A program made the position numbers and the translations under genes. Source: an uncultured Alphaproteobacteria bacterium (GTDB lineage: Bacteria; Pseudomonadota; Alphaproteobacteria; Methylaequorales; Methylaequoraceae). From it: a DNA stretch of 64,000 bases. The DNA is taken from NCBI GenBank assembly GCA_902613995.1, contig CACMJG010000003.1, positions 70,054-134,053 on the forward strand, read 5' to 3'. This document shows positions 7,357 through 21,419 of this stretch, one piece after another (position 1 is the stretch's first letter; every line of letters starts with the position of its first letter). The notes below the pieces were generated by a model that was not told the origin of the DNA, did no database searches, and saw only the letters and a program-made list of their open reading frames with translations.

Positions 7357-8694
7357 TTACGTTTTTAAAGTAACGACCTCCTCTGCACATGTTGGGTGGA
7401 TTCCAATTGTTTTATCAAGTTGACTTTTTGTCAAGCCATTTACAACAGCAACTGAAAAACCTTGTATTATCTCCGCAGCATTTTCTCCTGCATAATGCAA
7501 ACCAACTATCTTGTCATTTAAAGCGTTAGTAATTAGTTTAATAAGAACTTTTTCCTTTGAATTTGACATTGAGAATTTAAGAGATCGAAATTGAGATTTA
7601 TAAACTTTGATTTTTTTATAAATCTTTTTAGCTTCATTTTCAGAGTAACCAACAAAAGCATAATTTGGATTAGAAAATACAGCAGTTGGAATATTTTTGT
7701 AGTCAAACTTCTTTTTATTGTTGGATTTAAGATTATTTACAAAAGTCATTGCTTCTGAAATAGCAACCGGTGTAAGTTGAACTTTGTCTATGACATCCCC
7801 AATAGCATAAATATTTTTAGCGGATGTTTTAAATAAATCATCAGTATGAATGGCACCTTTAAAATTGAGTTTAATTTTTGCATTTTCAATTTTCAATTTT
7901 GATATGTTTGGAACACGGCCCAAAGCTCCCATAACTTTTTCATATCTTCTGGTTTTATTTTTAAAAAAAACTTGATAATCTTTTTGTTTTAATTGAATCT
8001 TCTCGGGAAAATCTTCTACTATTATTTTTACACCTTTTTCCTGCATTTGTTGCATTATAAATTCAGATATCTCTTTATCAAAATCACTTAATATCCTTTT
8101 ACCTCGAACACATAAAGATGTGTTAACACCTAATCCATTAAAAATTGAGGCAAATTCAACTGCAATATATCCTCCCCCCATGATTAAAATATTTTTGGGT
8201 AATTTTTTTAAATCAAATGCCTCATCTGAAGACAAGATACTTACATTACTAAATTTATTGAGTTCTCTTGGTTTCGTCCCAACTGCAATCAAAATATTTT
8301 TTGAGTGAATATATTTATTGCCAACCTTTAAGGTGTTTTGATCCACAAATTCTGCATAATCTTCAAAGATTTTTACTTTTGAGTTTTCAAGTAAATTTTG
8401 ATAGATATTATTGAGCCTAAAAAGTTCTTTCTTTTTATTTTTAACAAGTTTGTTCCAACTAAATTTTGACTTATCGATTTTCCAACCAAATGATCTCATT
8501 AAGTTTAATTCCTCACTGTAATGAGAAGCAAATGAATATAGTTTTTTAGGAATACATCCTTTATTTACACAAGTACCTCCAAGGCGAGACCCCTCTGCTA
8601 TTCCAGTATTTATTCCAAGCGAAGAAGCGTATCGAGCTGCCCTTACGCCACCCGATCCACCACCAATTACAAATAAATCAAACTTTAAAGTCAT
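7357..8694 (-). CDS. gor: glutathione-disulfide reductase (pyridine nucleotide-disulfide oxidoreductase)
   Basis: GGGSGG FAD motif, redox-active CVNKGCIPKK and C-terminal GIHPTCAEE dimerisation motif. Confidence 0.85.
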   Translation of the reverse strand: MTLKFDLFVIGGGSGGVRAARYASSLGINTGIAEGSRLGGTCVNKGCIPKKLYSFASHYSEELNLMRSFGWKIDKSKFSWNKLVKNKKKELFRLNNIYQNLLENSKVKIFEDYAEFVDQNTLKVGNKYIHSKNILIAVGTKPRELNKFSNVSILSSDEAFDLKKLPKNILIMGGGYIAVEFASIFNGLGVNTSLCVRGKRILSDFDKEISEFIMQQMQEKGVKIIVEDFPEKIQLKQKDYQVFFKNKTRRYEKVMGALGRVPNISKLKIENAKIKLNFKGAIHTDDLFKTSAKNIYAIGDVIDKVQLTPVAISEAMTFVNNLKSNNKKKFDYKNIPTAVFSNPNYAFVGYSENEAKKIYKKIKVYKSQFRSLKFSMSNSKEKVLIKLITNALNDKIVGLHYAGENAAEIIQGFSVAVVNGLTKSQLDKTIGIHPTCAEEVVTLKT

Positions 8695-8863: not shown

Positions 8864-9382
8864 TCAAATATTTTTACAAAAACTATCTAAGACCGAACAG
8901 AATTCTTCTTTTTGAATTTCTTTAGATTTTGTCTGAATCAATGATTCTCCAAAAACCTTGGATCCAAGGTAATTTAACTGTATTCGAAATCCCTCAATAA
9001 AATTTTTTCCATTTCCTCCAGAAGAAGTACATATAAGTGACGGTTTATCTTTAAACCCTTCTTTCCAATCTTCAGTAGCTCTGCTAATCCATGCTATTGC
9101 GTTAGTAACAATAGGTGAAATCCCTCCATTATACTCTGGACTACACCATATGATTGCATTTGAGGCGCAAATCAAATTTTTAGATTTCTCAATATTTTGC
9201 GGAAAAGACTGATTTTTTTTAAACTTTTCTTCAAGTGTTGGGGTGTAAAGAGGTAAATCGAAATCTTCTAATGAGACAACTTCGCAATTCAAATTTTTTG
9301 TTTCTTTAATATAACTCTTAATACTTTTGGACAAATCAAAGTTGGAGTTTTTTGTAGATGAAATTATTAACAGTTTTGACAT
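8864..9382 (-). CDS. NADPH-dependent FMN reductase family flavoprotein
   Basis: Flavodoxin-like 172-aa ORF with the WCSPEYNGGISPIVTNAIAWIS motif typical of the FMN_red family. Confidence 0.75.
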   Translation of the reverse strand: MSKLLIISSTKNSNFDLSKSIKSYIKETKNLNCEVVSLEDFDLPLYTPTLEEKFKKNQSFPQNIEKSKNLICASNAIIWCSPEYNGGISPIVTNAIAWISRATEDWKEGFKDKPSLICTSSGGNGKNFIEGFRIQLNYLGSKVFGESLIQTKSKEIQKEEFCSVLDSFCKNI

Positions 9383-16162: not shown

Positions 16163-16405
16163 TTAACGTTTTTTAAATTTTCTTCTTAAATTTAAATTTT
16201 TATTTTTATTTCTTTTATTAATTTCATTTTTGTCTTCACTACTGAACACACATATTCTATTTCTTACACCTCTTGTTCTTTCAAAAGAATTTTTCGGTGA
16301 TTTACATTCATAATATACTCCATCAATATTTATTCTTTTTTTTCCGTAAGATTCATCATTAAAAAAAATGATTATAAAAATTATAAAAACATAATACGGC
16401 ATCAT
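16163..16405 (-). CDS. hypothetical 80-aa protein coupled to glmS-tail relic
   Basis: Its ATG overlaps the TGA of the relic glmS tail (ATGA). Hydrophobic N-terminus and a very basic C-terminus. Confidence 0.35.
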   Translation of the reverse strand: MMPYYVFIIFIIIFFNDESYGKKRINIDGVYYECKSPKNSFERTRGVRNRICVFSSEDKNEINKRNKNKNLNLRRKFKKR

Positions 16406-16455
16406 TCAACTGTAATCTTTTTAGTCAAACTTCTAGGTTGATCATCTATTTTCAT
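16402..16455 (-). pseudogene. relic copy of glmS 3-prime coding end (copy 3)
   Basis: Translates as MKIDDQPRSLTKKITVE*, compared with the glmS C-terminus DQPRNLAKSVTVE*. Shares the TTCTAGGTTGATCA core. Confidence 0.75.
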
Positions 16456-16821: not shown

Positions 16822-17076
16822 TCATTTTTTATAAACTAAACAAGTACCCTCGTTACCTGTCAAATGTAACTTATACATTTTGTCATCATTATAAAAATAC
16901 AAATGAAGGTCACCTGATTTCCTATTGATTGTTGAGTTTACTATTTTGGTATCATTATCTTCTAATTCTTTCATACACTTTTCATAATCAATAAGTTTTG
17001 TTATTGATTTTTTATCTTTTGACTTCACTTCAAAAGAGACAAACAAACAAATCAATATCAATAATAGTTTTTTCAT
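16822..17076 (-). CDS. small secreted protein
   Basis: Signal peptide MKKLLLILICLFVSFEVKS. Start placed at MKK; the track start at 17088 adds 4 codons. The signal-coding DNA is near-identical to 17874-17929. Confidence 0.5.
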   Translation of the reverse strand: MKKLLLILICLFVSFEVKSKDKKSITKLIDYEKCMKELEDNDTKIVNSTINRKSGDLHLYFYNDDKMYKLHLTGNEGTCLVYKK

Positions 17077-17078
17077 AC

Positions 17079-17500
17079 AAAAATCCATAATGATCCAAAT
17101 ATAAGAATATCTATTAAAATCACTTTTGTAAAACTACTCATAAACCAACTCACTACTTATTATTTCACCTAACTTACTTTTATTCTTTTCTAAATGTCTA
17201 TTATGTTTCTTTATTAACTCAAACACTAAACTTGGAGAAAACCTTTTTCCTCTATAACTCAGTATATTAATCTGATTAAAATATTGACTTATCATTTTAT
17301 AAGTATGACCACATTCTCTAAAAAAAATAATCTTATCAATCAACATTTTTTGATAAGGAGAGTATGGATAAGAATTCAGTCTTATGTTTGATATCTTATA
17401 GTGAATTTTAAGGATGATGTTTGTATAATCTCTAAAACTATACATACAAAACGAAATCATTCCACGGTAATCTTTTTTGTCAAATTTCTAGGTTGATCAT
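17079..17500. repeat. ~420-bp direct repeat, copy A (pairs with 19217-19640)
   Basis: By-eye alignment gives roughly 85-90% identity. It covers the 108-aa gene plus the glmS-tail copy. Confidence 0.85.
17134..17460 (-). CDS. 108-aa cassette protein with resolvase-like helix-turn-helix region (paralog of 19276-19602)
   Basis: ATGA-coupled to relic glmS tail. GHTYKMISQYFNQINILSYRGKRFSPSLVFELIKK resembles the HTH/recombinase-domain segment of serine recombinases, but there is no catalytic domain. Confidence 0.55.
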   Translation of the reverse strand: MISFCMYSFRDYTNIILKIHYKISNIRLNSYPYSPYQKMLIDKIIFFRECGHTYKMISQYFNQINILSYRGKRFSPSLVFELIKKHNRHLEKNKSKLGEIISSELVYE

Positions 17501-17510
17501 CTATTTTCAT
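17457..17510 (-). pseudogene. relic copy of glmS 3-prime coding end (copy 2)
   Basis: Translates as MKIDDQPRNLTKKITVE*. 33 of the last 42 nt are identical to the functional glmS tail. Confidence 0.8.
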
Positions 17511-17563
17511 AACTCACCCCTCATCAATATCAGTAATAGTTTTTTCATTATTTGAAATTATTC

Positions 17564-17929
17564 CTAATCTTTTTGTTTCCTATTAATATCAAATTTCAAA
17601 CAACCAATATAAGATAAACCTTCTTTTTTTGAATCAGATTGTTTTTTTCTTGTATTCACCATTATGAGATAAGTCTTCCCCTTATAAACAAACACTGTAT
17701 CAATTCTATTTCCAAGACTACCTACCTTATTTGACCAAGAACTAATTGTTTTACCTTTTTCAAAATACTTCAAACACTCTTGTGTTTGGATATTTTCAGT
17801 AGGATAATACTTTGATAGACGTTTACGTTCTTCCTCTAACTCAAAAATGTCATTTAAATTTGGTCGTGACTGTGACTTCACTTCAAAAGACACAAACAAA
17901 CAAATCAATATCAGTAATAGTTTTTTCAT
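17564..17929 (-). CDS. secreted 121-aa protein
   Basis: Signal peptide MKKLLLILICLFVSFEVKS. 4-nt overlap with the upstream 107-aa gene. Confidence 0.55.
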   Translation of the reverse strand: MKKLLLILICLFVSFEVKSQSRPNLNDIFELEEERKRLSKYYPTENIQTQECLKYFEKGKTISSWSNKVGSLGNRIDTVFVYKGKTYLIMVNTRKKQSDSKKEGLSYIGCLKFDINRKQKD

Positions 17930-18249
17930 TTTTGTAACTTTCTTAACTCAGTCCAAACATTTAAATACGAATTATGTCTCTCTGATTGATCAGGAGAAAT
18001 TGAGTTTTTAAAATTATCGTAATTTATGTCTTCAACTATATTCTTCAGTTTACTAGATACATCAGTCTTTTTTATGAAAGAACGATACTTATAATCTGAA
18101 TTTTCCATTTCAAAAACATCTGAGTCTGGAAAAACTTTTTCTATATCACCTTTGATTCTTGAACGAACTAATAACTCGTCTTTATTATTTCTATTTTCAA
18201 CTATTGATAAAAAAGAATTATTTAGAAATACCCACATTATACTTTTCAA
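17926..18249 (-). CDS. 107-aa hypothetical protein (operon partner of DUF3427-HNH)
   Basis: ORF with 4-nt overlaps on both sides. No motif I can name. Confidence 0.55.
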   Translation of the reverse strand: MKSIMWVFLNNSFLSIVENRNNKDELLVRSRIKGDIEKVFPDSDVFEMENSDYKYRSFIKKTDVSSKLKNIVEDINYDNFKNSISPDQSERHNSYLNVWTELRKLQK

Positions 18250-19205
18250 TTATTTTTAATTTCATTTTTTTCATTAAATTTTTTTCTATGTCTTGTTAAG
18301 TATTTAATCATTCCTTTTGAAACATTTATTTTTATGTCTTTTCTTAGACCTAATTTTATCACATTTTTTTGGTTTAATTTTTTTGAAATCAAAAGTTCAC
18401 CATTATCTTTAAAAGAAATTAAATATCTATCAAAAAGAGAGTCAAAAATCGGTGATAATAATATTCCATTTTCAGGATCCAATCTCTCCTTATCTGTTGA
18501 TTCTGACCAACGGACAATATGAGATGAAATTAAAATGGATTTAATATCTATTCCTGTAATTGGACACATTCCGTTCCATTTATCTATTATTTGTTGTCTA
18601 TAATAACCTTGACCAACTCTTGATGTAACCATTCCTTTTCTTTCAGTCTTATCAGGTTTTTTATATTCTTTTTTTCTTTTATCTGAAATAATTCCTTTCA
18701 TTGATATTTTTGAACTGGTTTTCATTCCTATTTTTGAGGGGTTCCATAGGTAAATATCAATTAGGTCATCGTTTTCAGTAAAGTCATCATAATCAACACT
18801 TTGAAAAACTATGTGAACAGGATTTGATGTTTTTTCTTCATGAGAATGATAAATCAACTTCCCACAATAAATAAAAGGTAGAGTTACATTTTTAGTTTTT
18901 GGATTAACTCTTACGAATAAATGTGGTGTAACTTTTCCACTCACAATTTCTTGTATTTTAGGACTATCGATATTTTGTGTTGTTTGAGAGTCCCAATGAA
19001 AAAAATCTCCTTCAAAAAAATCATTAAAATGAAATTTTTTTTCTTTATCTTTTTTTTCAAGGTCAACAAAGAAAAGTGATGAACTAGAATTTTTACAATT
19101 AAAAATTCCTTCCCGAACAAAAGAAAGATTTGGTTGATCTAACAAACTTGATAGATCCTTTTTGGAATATTTACTTCCTAAATCTAAAACTTTCTCAGGT
19201 TCCAT
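18246..19205 (-). CDS. DUF3427-HNH nuclease (putative modification-dependent / type IV restriction endonuclease)
   Basis: The N-terminal ~170 aa follow the DUF3427 pattern (YSKKDLSSLL...LFFVDLEK...FNDFF..FFHWDSQ...HLFVR...FIYCGKL...PVHIVF). The C-terminus carries an HNH_2-type motif (VGQGYYRQ...CPITG....L.SSHIVRWS....LDPENGILLSP.FD.LFD). Confidence 0.8.
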   Translation of the reverse strand: MEPEKVLDLGSKYSKKDLSSLLDQPNLSFVREGIFNCKNSSSSLFFVDLEKKDKEKKFHFNDFFEGDFFHWDSQTTQNIDSPKIQEIVSGKVTPHLFVRVNPKTKNVTLPFIYCGKLIYHSHEEKTSNPVHIVFQSVDYDDFTENDDLIDIYLWNPSKIGMKTSSKISMKGIISDKRKKEYKKPDKTERKGMVTSRVGQGYYRQQIIDKWNGMCPITGIDIKSILISSHIVRWSESTDKERLDPENGILLSPIFDSLFDRYLISFKDNGELLISKKLNQKNVIKLGLRKDIKINVSKGMIKYLTRHRKKFNEKNEIKNN

Positions 19206-19216
19206 TTTCTAATCTC

Positions 19217-19640
19217 AAAAATAAATCCACAATGTTCCAAATATAAGAATATCGATTAAAATAACTTTTGTAAAACTACTCATAAACCAACTCACTCCTT
19301 ATTATTTCACCTAACTTACTTTTATTCTTCTCTAAATGTCTATTATATTTCTTTATTAACTCAAACACTAAACTTGGAGAAAAATTTTTTCCTCTATAAC
19401 TCAGTATATTAATTTGATTAAAATATTGACTTATCATTTTATAAGTATGACCACATTTTCTTAAGAAGATAATCTTATCGATTAACTTTTTTTGGTATTC
19501 AGAGTATGGATACGGGTTAAGTTTTATGTTTGATATCCTATAGTGAATTTTGAGAGTAAGTTTTGTGATGTTTTTATTTTTATACAGACAATTGAAACTC
19601 ATTCCACAGTTACAGATTTAGCTAAATTTCTAGGTTGATC
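19217..19640. repeat. ~420-bp direct repeat, copy B (pairs with 17079-17500)
   Basis: Covers the 108-aa gene and the functional glmS 3-prime end. Confidence 0.85.
19276..19602 (-). CDS. 108-aa cassette protein with resolvase-like helix-turn-helix region
   Basis: Its ATG overlaps the glmS TGA (GAATGAGT). About three-quarters identical to the 17134-17460 product by eye. Confidence 0.6.
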   Translation of the reverse strand: MSFNCLYKNKNITKLTLKIHYRISNIKLNPYPYSEYQKKLIDKIIFLRKCGHTYKMISQYFNQINILSYRGKNFSPSLVFELIKKYNRHLEKNKSKLGEIIRSELVYE

Positions 19641-21419
19641 AACATCGGTACCTTTCAAGACTCCTACAAAATAAGATAGTAGTTGAACTGGTAAAGTAAA
19701 AATTATTGGTTGTACAAACTCATGAAGGTTCTTTAAAACTAATCTTTTGAGATTTTTGTCATCGATCTCTTTGTCGCCGTTAGTATCAGTAACTAATATA
19801 ACTTTACCTCCGCGTGCTAAAATTTCTTGCATATTAGAAATATTTTTCTCAAATAAACTATCTTTAGGTGCTAATACAATTACAGGAACTTTATCATCAA
19901 CCAGTGCAATTGGACCATGTTTCATTTCGCCAGAAGCGTATCCCTCAGCATGTATATAAGAAATTTCTTTTAATTTTAATGCACCTTCCAGTGCAATTGG
20001 AAACAAATGACCTCTTCCCAAGAATAAAACACTTTTTGCATTAACTATTTGCTTACTTAATTTCTTGACTTGCCCTACTAAATTAAAAACAGATGACATA
20101 TTTGAAGGGATTTCCAAAAGTTTTTCAGTTAATTTTTGCTCATTGGAACTATTAATTGTTTTTCTTTCTCTTCCAGCTATTAAACATAAGCACGCTAAAA
20201 CACTAAGTTGCGCAGTAAACGCTTTAGTTGATGCGACGCCAATTTCTGGGCCCGCTTCTATAGTTATGAAATTGTGCGATTCTCTTGCAATACTACTCTC
20301 TGAATTATTGACAATACTAAATATTTTACTGTCGTTTTTCTTGGCAAATCTTAAGGCAGCTAACGTATCTGCTGTTTCACCAGATTGTGAAATAAATATT
20401 GAAAGTGTATTCTTCGATTTAATGTACGTTTTGTATCTAAATTCGGATGCTAGATAAGAATTTGCATTCAAATTTAAATATTTTTCAAACCAATAAGTTG
20501 CGGTTTGACACGCAAAATATGATGTTCCACATGCAATAAAATCTATTTTTGAAATTTGTTTCCAATTAACTTTTAAATCAAGAATATTTATTTTTTTTTT
20601 TATAGGATCAAGAAATCTTGATAAAGAGTCTCCAATAATGAGTGGTTGCTCAAAAATTTCTTTTTGCATGTAATGATCAAAATTTCCTTTATCAAGATTT
20701 GATCCAGTGAACGAAGATAATGTTATATTTCTCTTCACTTTTTTAAAATCTTTATTGTAAATATCAAATTTGTCTTTCTCAATAATAACGCTATCTCCTT
20801 CATCCATAAATATAATCTTTTGAGTAAAAGGGGCTAGAGCTAATGAATCAGAACCTAAATAAGTGGTTTTATCTGACAAACCAAGTGCTAATGGACTTCC
20901 TCTCCTTGCGCCTGCTAATAAATTAAAGTTTTTAAAAATTATTGCTATAGCAAATGCACCCTCTAAATATTGTAAAGTATTTTTTATTGCATTTCTTGGA
21001 GTATTTACTCTTAACTCATAACTTAGTAAATGAGCTATAACTTCACTATCAGTTTGAGATTTAAAAATAAATCCTTTATTTTTTAACATTTTCTTGAGTT
21101 GTGAGTAATTTTCTATTATTCCATTATGAACAATCGAAACATTTTCAGAAACATGCGGATGAGCATTAATTGTGGATGGTACACCATGGGTAGCCCATCT
21201 TGTATGACCAATTCCAATATTTCCAAATAGCTCATTTGTTTTTATTTTTTTATTTAGATTCTCTAACTTACCTTTAGCTCTTACAGTTATGATAGAGTTA
21301 CTATTATCCAGAACTGAGATACCAGATGAATCATACCCCCGATATTCAAGCTTCGAGAGTCCCGTTAAAATTGGATTAATAACTGGATTATTAGAGAAAA
21401 TACCAAAGATTCCACACAT
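19599..21419 (-). CDS. glmS: glutamine--fructose-6-phosphate aminotransferase
   Basis: MCGIFG Ntn-glutaminase start, two SIS domains and the canonical C-terminus DQPRNLAKSVTVE. Confidence 0.97.
   Translation of the reverse strand: MCGIFGIFSNNPVINPILTGLSKLEYRGYDSSGISVLDNSNSIITVRAKGKLENLNKKIKTNELFGNIGIGHTRWATHGVPSTINAHPHVSENVSIVHNGIIENYSQLKKMLKNKGFIFKSQTDSEVIAHLLSYELRVNTPRNAIKNTLQYLEGAFAIAIIFKNFNLLAGARRGSPLALGLSDKTTYLGSDSLALAPFTQKIIFMDEGDSVIIEKDKFDIYNKDFKKVKRNITLSSFTGSNLDKGNFDHYMQKEIFEQPLIIGDSLSRFLDPIKKKINILDLKVNWKQISKIDFIACGTSYFACQTATYWFEKYLNLNANSYLASEFRYKTYIKSKNTLSIFISQSGETADTLAALRFAKKNDSKIFSIVNNSESSIARESHNFITIEAGPEIGVASTKAFTAQLSVLACLCLIAGRERKTINSSNEQKLTEKLLEIPSNMSSVFNLVGQVKKLSKQIVNAKSVLFLGRGHLFPIALEGALKLKEISYIHAEGYASGEMKHGPIALVDDKVPVIVLAPKDSLFEKNISNMQEILARGGKVILVTDTNGDKEIDDKNLKRLVLKNLHEFVQPIIFTLPVQLLSYFVGVLKGTDVDQPRNLAKSVTVE

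Follow-up and report, generated by a model that had tools for sequence, protein, structure and literature searches.

A DUF3427-HNH protein, candidate type IV restriction nuclease, in a cassette bounded by copies of the glmS tail in an uncultured alphaproteobacterium

The DNA analysed here is a window of 64 kb (positions 70,054 to 134,053 of contig CACMJG010000003.1, assembly GCA_902613995.1; G+C about 28%) from an uncultured alphaproteobacterium, and its subject is a gene behind glmS that encodes a 319-amino acid (aa) protein with a DUF3427 domain and an HNH nuclease domain. An earlier note made from the letters alone had described this gene as the first of an overlapping three-gene operon and had proposed a modification-dependent defence module. 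The listing of open reading frames (ORFs) does contain the three co-oriented ORFs on the minus strand, at 18246-19205 (319 aa), 17926-18249 (107 aa, TTG start) and 17564-17929 (121 aa). The closest genome matches to the locus are L010 and L011 (compared loci are designated by L and a number), two marine single-cell genomes labelled uncultured Alphaproteobacteria, and the source organism is taken to be SAR11-like. Because the homologues of the 107-aa ORF (more than 200) are 101-103 aa long and start with MW in the alignment, and because the nucleotide homology of the gene to an island devoid of the HNH gene begins at 18240, its true start is placed on sequence grounds at the ATG 18237. This start gives a protein of 103 aa (17926-18237, minus strand), encoded 8 nt past the HNH stop. 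Of the two 4-nt overlaps reported previously, the ATGA at 17926-17929 between the 107-aa ORF and the 121-aa gene is real, whereas the overlap between the HNH gene and the 107-aa ORF exists only if TTG 18249 is taken as start. The glmS stop and the start of the next gene also overlap by ATGA, and the gap upstream of the HNH gene is filled by a mini-ORF of 22 aa. Tight packing is thus general at the locus and does not argue specifically for a unit of three genes. A promoter and terminator scan, uninformative in such AT-rich DNA, gave 24 promoter-like sites against 25 expected and no intergenic terminator. The nuclease and the two small downstream genes may share a transcript.

The last 43 nt of glmS (19599-19641, minus strand, encoding DQPRNLAKSVTVE and the stop) recur at 17457-17499 (DQPRNLTKKITVE and the stop) and at 16402-16444 (repeat family D3, 91% and 77% identity). 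The first two copies are each followed by a gene of 108 aa, p108a (19276-19602, minus strand), whose start overlaps the glmS stop, and its paralogue (17134-17460). The true glmS tail is the proximal boundary and the first relic tail the distal boundary of a nuclease cassette of 2.1 kb, composed of p108a, the mini-ORF, the nuclease gene, the 103-aa gene and the 121-aa gene. The next cassette (1.0 kb, 17457-16444) is without nuclease, and the conserved core genes resume past the third tail. The location behind glmS in a variable cassette, as given in the earlier note, is therefore right, and the glmS-tail copies delimit this cassette. The protein p108a displays a weak match to the Pfam family Recombinase (E 0.019), and members of its family are found beside glmS tails in at least 11 loci. 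The hydrophobic mini-ORF is present in two copies on the minus strand, at 19215-19283 (MSSFTKVILIDILIFGTLWIYF), between p108a and the HNH gene, and at 17073-17141 (product ending in GSLWIFV). Each copy overlaps the stop of its p108 copy; the two differ by synonymous or conservative changes only and are included in a 300-nt direct repeat (D1). For the mini-ORF product, a function as leader or as small membrane peptide is conceivable.

The C-terminal half of the 319-aa protein matches the Pfam family HNH_2 (PF13391) at residues 214-266 (E 7.5e-12, 45 bits for a cut-off of 21), and the PADLOC model HNH matches the protein with an E-value of 1.3e-26; weaker PADLOC matches are labelled type II restriction enzyme. 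The motifs CPITG, SSHIVRWS, ENGILLSP and LFD, from which an HNH_2-type nuclease had been proposed, are all present and are invariant or almost so in 37 homologues. When the PDB was searched by sequence, the whole protein and a profile of its full length both recovered VcaM4I (6yex) as sole match, and SauUSI was not found. VcaM4I aligns with residues 184-308 (E 1e-23, and 1e-33 with a family profile). In VcaM4I, the residues His224, Asp250 and Asp254 are needed for activity and Asn241 is structural (Pastor et al., PMC7897488). The four residues are kept in the 319-aa protein, where they correspond to His229, Asn246, Asp255 and Asp259, the predicted catalytic residues of an HNH (beta-beta-alpha-Me) domain comprised between residues 200 and 319 (18249-18608, minus strand). 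Among the 37 homologues, His229, Asn246 and Asp255 are invariant and Asp259 is conserved in at least 90%. The ratio of nonsynonymous to synonymous substitution rates (dN/dS) of the nuclease gene, calculated against its relatives, is 0.06.

The N-terminal domain (residues 1-160; 18726-19205, minus strand) matches DUF3427 (PF11907) with an E-value of 3e-16 and 60 bits, for a gathering cut-off of 27.7. The earlier note had seen this half as following DUF3427 block by block; the family assignment stands, but residues 6-125 cover only the profile positions 126-248 of 280, so that the SRA-like C-terminal half is present and the half corresponding to the SauUSI coupler is not. In SauUSI, the target recognition domain (TRD, residues 806-953) adopts the SRA fold and is preceded by a helical coupler (PMC7913695). 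Only the second half of DUF3427 is matched because the coupler, which contacts the ATPase, is absent here. A profile of the N-terminal domain (165 residues) matches the SauUSI residues 801-923, in the TRD, with an E-value of 7.9e-4. In this alignment the residues predicted to form the 5-methylcytosine (5mC) pocket of SauUSI, namely Tyr831, Phe841, Ile842, Asp858 and Trp868, correspond to Phe35, Phe46, Val47, Asp62 and Trp71. Five of the six predicted pocket residues are thus conserved, the sole exception being the finger residue Met829. Phe46 is invariant among the homologues, and Val47, Asp62 and Trp71 are nearly so. From this alignment (E 8e-4), to a reference pocket that is itself modelled, we infer a putative pocket for a flipped modified base in the SRA-like N-terminal domain.

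An AlphaFold2 model of the 319-aa protein, built on the alignment of homologues, shows two well-defined domains (mean predicted local distance difference test, pLDDT, 85; predicted template modelling score, pTM, 0.80), separated by a low-confidence linker at residues 185-198. With this model as query, Foldseek returned from the PDB almost exclusively readers or enzymes of modified cytosine: VcaM4I (3e-11), TagI (third-best match, 1.6e-6) and SauUSI (6.6e-6 over 141 columns), and further the SRA domains of SUVH6, UHRF1 and UHRF2, and MspJI, AbaSI and PvuRts1I. The fold, the catalytic residues and the pocket residues all agree with the view, taken in the earlier note, that a reader fused to HNH is the architecture of modification-dependent nucleases.

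We consider, with a probability of about three in four, that the 319-aa protein is a stand-alone type IV restriction nuclease that cuts DNA containing modified cytosines and that is carried on a glmS cassette. In the mechanism proposed from the model and the alignments, the SRA-like reader (the 160 N-terminal residues) would flip a 5-substituted cytosine (5mC, 5-hydroxymethylcytosine, 5hmC, or a related phage base) into the pocket formed by Phe35, Phe46, Val47, Asp62 and Trp71. The flexible linker would join this reader to the VcaM4I-type HNH domain, which would cut near the modified site. The HNH domain would act probably as a dimer, with His229 as general base and Asp255 and Asp259 holding the metal ion, and its activity would probably be restrained by the linker as in VcaM4I. 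Unmodified host DNA would be spared, so that no methyltransferase would be required and a single gene could cross phyla without killing the recipient. The substrate base, the dimerisation and the role in phage defence are the parts of this reading that go beyond the domains, the fold, the residues, the distribution, the neighbours and the mobility described in this work.

The co-occurrence of DUF3427 and HNH_2 was already noted in a survey of His-Me finger nucleases in 2017 (PMC5714182), and enzymes combining a reader (EVE or SRA) with HNH, or DUF3427 with PD-(D/E)XK, have been characterised (PMC6765204, PMC7897488, PMC6212794). The DUF3427-HNH_2 combination falls within type IV restriction, a form of phage defence that is already recognised. 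The EVE-HNH enzymes VcaM4I, TspA15I and CmeDI (PDB 6yex) share with the window protein a similar size (309 versus 319 aa), an N-terminal reader of modified cytosine, a linker, a homologous C-terminal HNH domain with identical active-site residues, and the status of solitary gene without methyltransferase. Their reader is an EVE domain and not the SRA-like module of SauUSI and DUF3427, the N-terminal halves display no sequence similarity, and the activity of the window protein is a predicted one. TagI and ScoA3IV (SRA-HNH, PDB 6ghs) also associate an SRA-fold reader with HNH, but without detectable sequence similarity, their reader being a canonical SAD/SRA domain and not of the DUF3427 lineage. 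SauUSI (PDB 7clg) has the homologous reader with the pocket residues indicated above. However, it possesses a PLD nuclease, an SF2 ATPase and a coupler that are found neither in the 319-aa protein nor in its neighbours; the window protein is about one third of its size, has an HNH cutter and, having neither ATPase nor coupler, is predicted to be ATP-independent. The DUF3427-PD-(D/E)XK enzymes McaZI, BwiMMI and EfaL9I (Lutz et al. 2019) are small single-chain enzymes with the same N-terminal reader family, and they restrict T4gt in vivo (PMC6765204). They differ by their DUF3883 PD-(D/E)XK domain and their methyltransferase neighbours, in place of the HNH_2 domain and the Nudix or HIT neighbours of the present family.

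A protein search detected at least 886 relatives of the 319-aa protein, mostly from marine metagenomes. The 120 relatives listed all have both Pfam domains, a length of 311-333 aa and an identity of 61-98%. On genome contigs, the family belongs to Alphaproteobacteria, Methylophilaceae, Gammaproteobacteria, Flavobacteriaceae, other Bacteroidota, Dehalococcoidia and Rhodothermales, and is placed in Verrucomicrobiota and Marinimicrobia for the HNH half only. It is almost absent from phage and viral collections. The neighbourhood was surveyed in 32 genome loci, 80 metagenome loci and the contigs of three homologues, and all neighbouring ORFs were clustered. The gene following the nuclease was counted wherever the downstream sequence measured 450 nt or more (88 loci): it encodes a Nudix hydrolase in 22 loci, an HIT protein in 15 and a member of the 107-aa family in four, is other or nothing recurrent in 47, and is never the 121-aa gene.

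Across phyla, the gene immediately after DUF3427-HNH is thus a Nudix or HIT gene in 37 of the 88 loci, and in many cases the two overlap. Examples are found for Nudix in L001 (6920-7318), L021 (6861-7259), L019 (8911-9288) and L025 (8923-9318), and for HIT in L013 (2048-2437), L051 and L064. The Nudix partner is nearest to the models of MutT and of the pyrimidine dNTP diphosphatase NudG. HNH_2 nucleases with another N-terminal domain (L033, L039) also have a Nudix gene downstream. The nuclease and the nucleotide hydrolase may form a two-gene module, for which no description was found in the literature searched. The NudG of E. coli hydrolyses 5-methyl-dCTP. The frequency of Nudix and HIT genes beside the nuclease suggests that the removal of modified nucleotides is a further activity in many relatives. 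In L017 (5727-8927, Marinilabilia rubra), a Nudix gene is followed by a gene for a Schlafen-group-3/DUF2075 helicase (608 aa) and then by the DUF3427-HNH gene, with overlaps between genes; a helicase neighbour of the DUF2075/Schlafen type was described for McaZI (PMC6765204), which has this feature in common with L017.

These hydrolases could also be taken to indicate a housekeeping or repair function, where the SRA-like domain would read a damaged or aberrant base and HNH would nick the DNA. The resemblance of the partner to MutT and to the dNTP diphosphatase would suit such a function, and some PUA-HNH enzymes, such as ScoA3V, are nickases (PMC6765204). We regard it as very unlikely: the gene is patchy, strain-specific, horizontally transferred and localized in flexible islands, the pocket residues agree with those of 5mC readers, and the window copy has neither Nudix nor HIT partner. 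No recurrent methyltransferase was observed beside the nuclease among the neighbours of about 110 loci, and there is none in the window cassette. Lutz et al. 2019 (PMC6765204) likewise took the lack of a methyltransferase neighbour as an argument for modification dependence. The same observation bears on an orphan, sequence-specific enzyme of type II (the AlwI/HphI group of HNH_2), whose methyltransferase would be encoded elsewhere. Group 6 of HNH_2 does include type II enzymes (PMC5714182), in line with the labels of the weaker PADLOC matches; yet an orphan type II enzyme would be lethal, single-gene cassettes of the nuclease cross phyla, and the N-terminal domain is an SRA-like reader, which leaves this explanation barely credible.

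Several points weigh against the type IV restriction of modified-cytosine DNA that we prefer. We know of no pelagiphage with a modified base. The position of Met829 in the pocket is occupied by Glu32, and position 35 is not aromatic in all homologues. The 37 loci with Nudix or HIT are a hint that a nucleotide hydrolase, missing beside the window copy, acts together with many members of the family. No biochemical test of any DUF3427-HNH_2 protein was found in the literature searched, the characterised DUF3427-PD-(D/E)XK enzymes showed little activity in vitro (PMC6765204), and the 5mC pocket of SauUSI comes from a model and not from a co-crystal (PMC7913695).

The three genes proposed as one defence module do not hold together. 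The co-occurrence of the three is not found elsewhere: the 107-aa family accompanies four nucleases in 88 and is also present alone, the 121-aa gene accompanies none, and the nucleotide synteny with L010, L011 and L050 (blastn) stops at 17921, the start codon of the 121-aa gene (17564-17929, minus strand). The 121-aa protein has 17 homologues, mostly on tiny contigs, and outside the window genome none was linked to the nuclease in the 88 loci. The first 57 nt of its gene constitute a signal-peptide module that is repeated at 17020-17076 and, truncated, at 17523-17559. By its position past the synteny breakpoint, the 121-aa gene appears as variable cargo, encoding a secreted protein and unrelated to the nuclease.

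The 103-aa protein has 242 homologues, typically of 103 aa, and its family comprises 5346 clusters at 50% identity (profile search). With a dN/dS of 0.05-0.07 the gene is strongly constrained and real. No match was obtained in Pfam, PHROG, NCBIfam or PADLOC, and ten longer family members are also without Pfam match. The AlphaFold2 model (pLDDT 91) consists of a five-stranded sheet followed by three helices; it matches no fold of the PDB (best E 0.38) and matches predicted viral proteins with an E-value of 8e-7. Resemblances to MotA and to LAGLIDADG-like proteins were dismissed as insignificant. A cryptic analogue of Nudix or HIT was ruled out, as there is neither Nudix box nor profile match. 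The family was detected in nine phages by tblastn. In a group of phages of 86-95 kb (L131-L135), it always comes directly after a Nudix gene and near a large ADP-ribosyltransferase/MuF-like protein; in 80 viral contigs (L137-L216), it is found mostly in head-module neighbourhoods, near MuF-like minor capsid or ADP-ribosyltransferase proteins. Among the glmS islands, L219, L042 and L223 are without nuclease and carry the 103-aa gene at 85-92% identity. In L219, the 103-aa gene comes after glmS, a decayed p108 and two small ORFs, and precedes the core gene of an M23 peptidase; in L223, it adjoins an N6/N4 methyltransferase gene. Remoter copies are located in the defence-like island L046 and in other places. 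Because of the low co-occurrence (4/88) and of the stand-alone copies in glmS islands and phages, the 103-aa gene is not tied to the nuclease and is best described, from these distributions, as an independent phage-type module and not as a dedicated partner.

It could be objected that the nuclease and the 103-aa protein make a two-component unit, with the latter as immunity protein, antitoxin, regulator or specificity partner in the slot of Nudix or HIT. The 103-aa gene does lie 8 nt past the HNH stop in the window and in L010, L011 and L050, and in L030 a nuclease 55% identical to that of the window is followed by a family member at 51%. Furthermore, VcaM4I has an HNH domain that is toxic on its own (PMC7897488), and the phages of about 90 kb complete a three-way link between HNH, Nudix and the 103-aa family. 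However, this phage synteny comes from one group of related phages and represents roughly one observation. The family accompanies only four of the 88 nucleases, its more than 5000 clusters lie mostly in head-module neighbourhoods of phages, close copies occur alone in glmS islands, and the recently exchanged block presented below ends inside the 103-aa gene, which has a synonymous divergence (dS) five times as high as the nuclease gene. A two-component unit is therefore unlikely. A toxin-immunity or toxin-antitoxin pair was rejected for the same kind of reasons: most nucleases are without the small protein, most copies of the small protein are without nuclease, and the dS values are discordant.

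The glmS protein of L010 is 61% identical to that of the window, whereas its nuclease is 98% identical. The sliding identity against the single-cell genomes delimits a block of 94-100% nucleotide identity from about 19460 (about 19300 for L050) to about 18100. This block (18100-19460, minus strand; sliding identity, blastn and dS) includes the 3' part of p108, the mini-ORF, the entire HNH gene and the 5' third of the 103-aa gene; beyond it, the 3' part of the 103-aa gene is only 79% identical. The dS is 0.12 for the nuclease and 0.6 for the 103-aa gene. These differences show that the nuclease was swapped recently between divergent SAR11-like genomes by recombination in conserved flanks. The mini-ORF lies within the conserved segment acting as left homology arm when the nuclease block is exchanged. 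The glmS stop (19601) is the exact point at which 6-10 contigs per run leave the window sequence in four marine metagenomes; their many continuations agree poorly with one another (about 0.55), and a joint from 17143 to 19603 was seen in two metagenome runs. These observations are consistent with presence or absence of the nuclease cassette at the level of the population. The metagenome depth of the nuclease is far lower than that of glmS; the contigs over the region are too fragmented for phasing the cassette variants.

Copies of the glmS tail were also searched in the related loci. A fuzzy search for repeats of 45 nt of the glmS tail found none in these loci. A strict pattern of 15 nt (GTNACNGTNGARTRR, encoding VTVE and the stop) occurs about 35 times outside glmS in the 0.96 Mb of fetched loci, for less than one occurrence expected; the relic tails of the window read ITVE before the stop and escape this pattern. 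In L016 (Dehalococcoidia; tails at 7918-7932 and 9104-9118), the nuclease is alone between the tails and is followed by bacA and other housekeeping genes. L034 (Marinimicrobia; tails at 7508 and 8435) has a tail-bracketed nuclease cassette, L013 (Methylophilaceae; tails at 1048 and 2468) and L051 (tails at 64 and 1486) have the nuclease and HIT between the tails, and glmS-tail brackets around nuclease cassettes are also found in L058, L098 and others. These sequences indicate that glmS is the site of a cassette system without integrase that extends over several phyla. Cassettes bracketed by relic tails are likewise present in L032, L036, L065, L087 and L094. The bracketed cassettes measure 1-1.5 kb in Dehalococcoidia, Marinimicrobia, Methylophilaceae, Gammaproteobacteria and SAR11-like genomes; several of them are free of any recombinase and contain nothing besides the nuclease or the nuclease and HIT.

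A small recombinase of the serine type, of about 200 aa and with a Resolvase domain, adjoins a glmS tail or a p108-family gene in L001 (3113-4115), where the p108-family gene overlaps the start of the recombinase, and in L022 (6621-7217), L014 (10636-11247) and L035 (3539-3949); it is a candidate for the enzyme that would serve the cassettes in trans. In L029 (1907-7324), four consecutive p108-family genes are oriented against both glmS and the nuclease, an arrangement that suggests tandem cassettes invertible relative to glmS. Convergent arrangements of glmS and nuclease are also found in L019, L088, L115, L117 and L124. The flexible islands fGI-2 of Methylophilaceae are additive and marked by tRNA-Lys repeats (PMC10872708). 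The nuclease described here likewise lies in an array of small insertions, and a copy of the final 15-43 nt of the target gene delimits each of them, but the repeats are inside the coding tail of glmS and not in a tRNA. The glmS end is also exploited by Tn7-like elements (attTn7 lies behind glmS). The window cassette shares this target with them but contains neither Tn7 genes nor integrase, and the cassettes are of 1-2 kb.

Given these boundaries, the nuclease could be a homing-like mobility enzyme, with a cleavage site in or close to the glmS tail, that drives the insertion of its own cassette rather than defending against phages. HNH nucleases are common among homing enzymes, 10 of the 27 loci that extend for 2.6 kb or more on either side of the nuclease are at the glmS end or at a p108 gene, and the cassettes of L016, L034, L013 and L051, which hold just the nuclease alone or with HIT, often have it as first gene, 20-70 nt past the tail. 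Against this, the reader belongs to the SRA-like, base-flipping domains, has conserved 5mC-pocket residues and is not a binder of long DNA sites, and the nearest solved relative, VcaM4I, is a restriction enzyme of low specificity. Moreover, cassettes with the same boundaries exist without nuclease (17457-16444 in the window; L219, L042), the nuclease adjoins tyrosine integrases far from glmS in L004 and L007, and the duplicated tails point instead to site-specific recombination. We give this explanation little credence.

A related proposal, quite unlikely in our estimation, makes the DUF3427-HNH gene, instead of passive defence cargo, the selfish core of a minimal cross-phylum cassette, promoting its insertion or retention at the universally conserved SVTVE-stop end of glmS, with the slot for Nudix, HIT or the 103-aa protein as an accessory handling nucleotide products. 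It is based on the series formed by the single-gene cassettes of Dehalococcoidia and Marinimicrobia, the nuclease with HIT of Methylophilaceae and the larger cassette of SAR11. If true, it would represent a new kind of integrase-less site-specific element. Together, the explanations other than a type IV nuclease specific for modified cytosine account for about a quarter of the probability.

The association of a SauUSI-type reader and a VcaM4I-type cutter in 319 aa is an abundant combination (more than 880 clusters, mostly marine), and the 319-aa gene is a concrete, clonable candidate; DUF3427-HNH proteins could serve as compact tool enzymes dependent on 5mC or 5hmC. Two by-products of this analysis are perhaps more interesting than the gene itself, namely the recurrent Nudix or HIT gene after the nuclease, and the nuclease as cargo of tiny glmS-tail cassettes in several phyla (SAR11, Methylophilaceae, Dehalococcoidia and Marinimicrobia). 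SAR11 bacteria have streamlined genomes, in which classical defence systems are considered scarce. A type IV nuclease exchanged in a glmS island of such genomes would imply that modified cytosines are present in some pelagiphages or in other incoming DNA.

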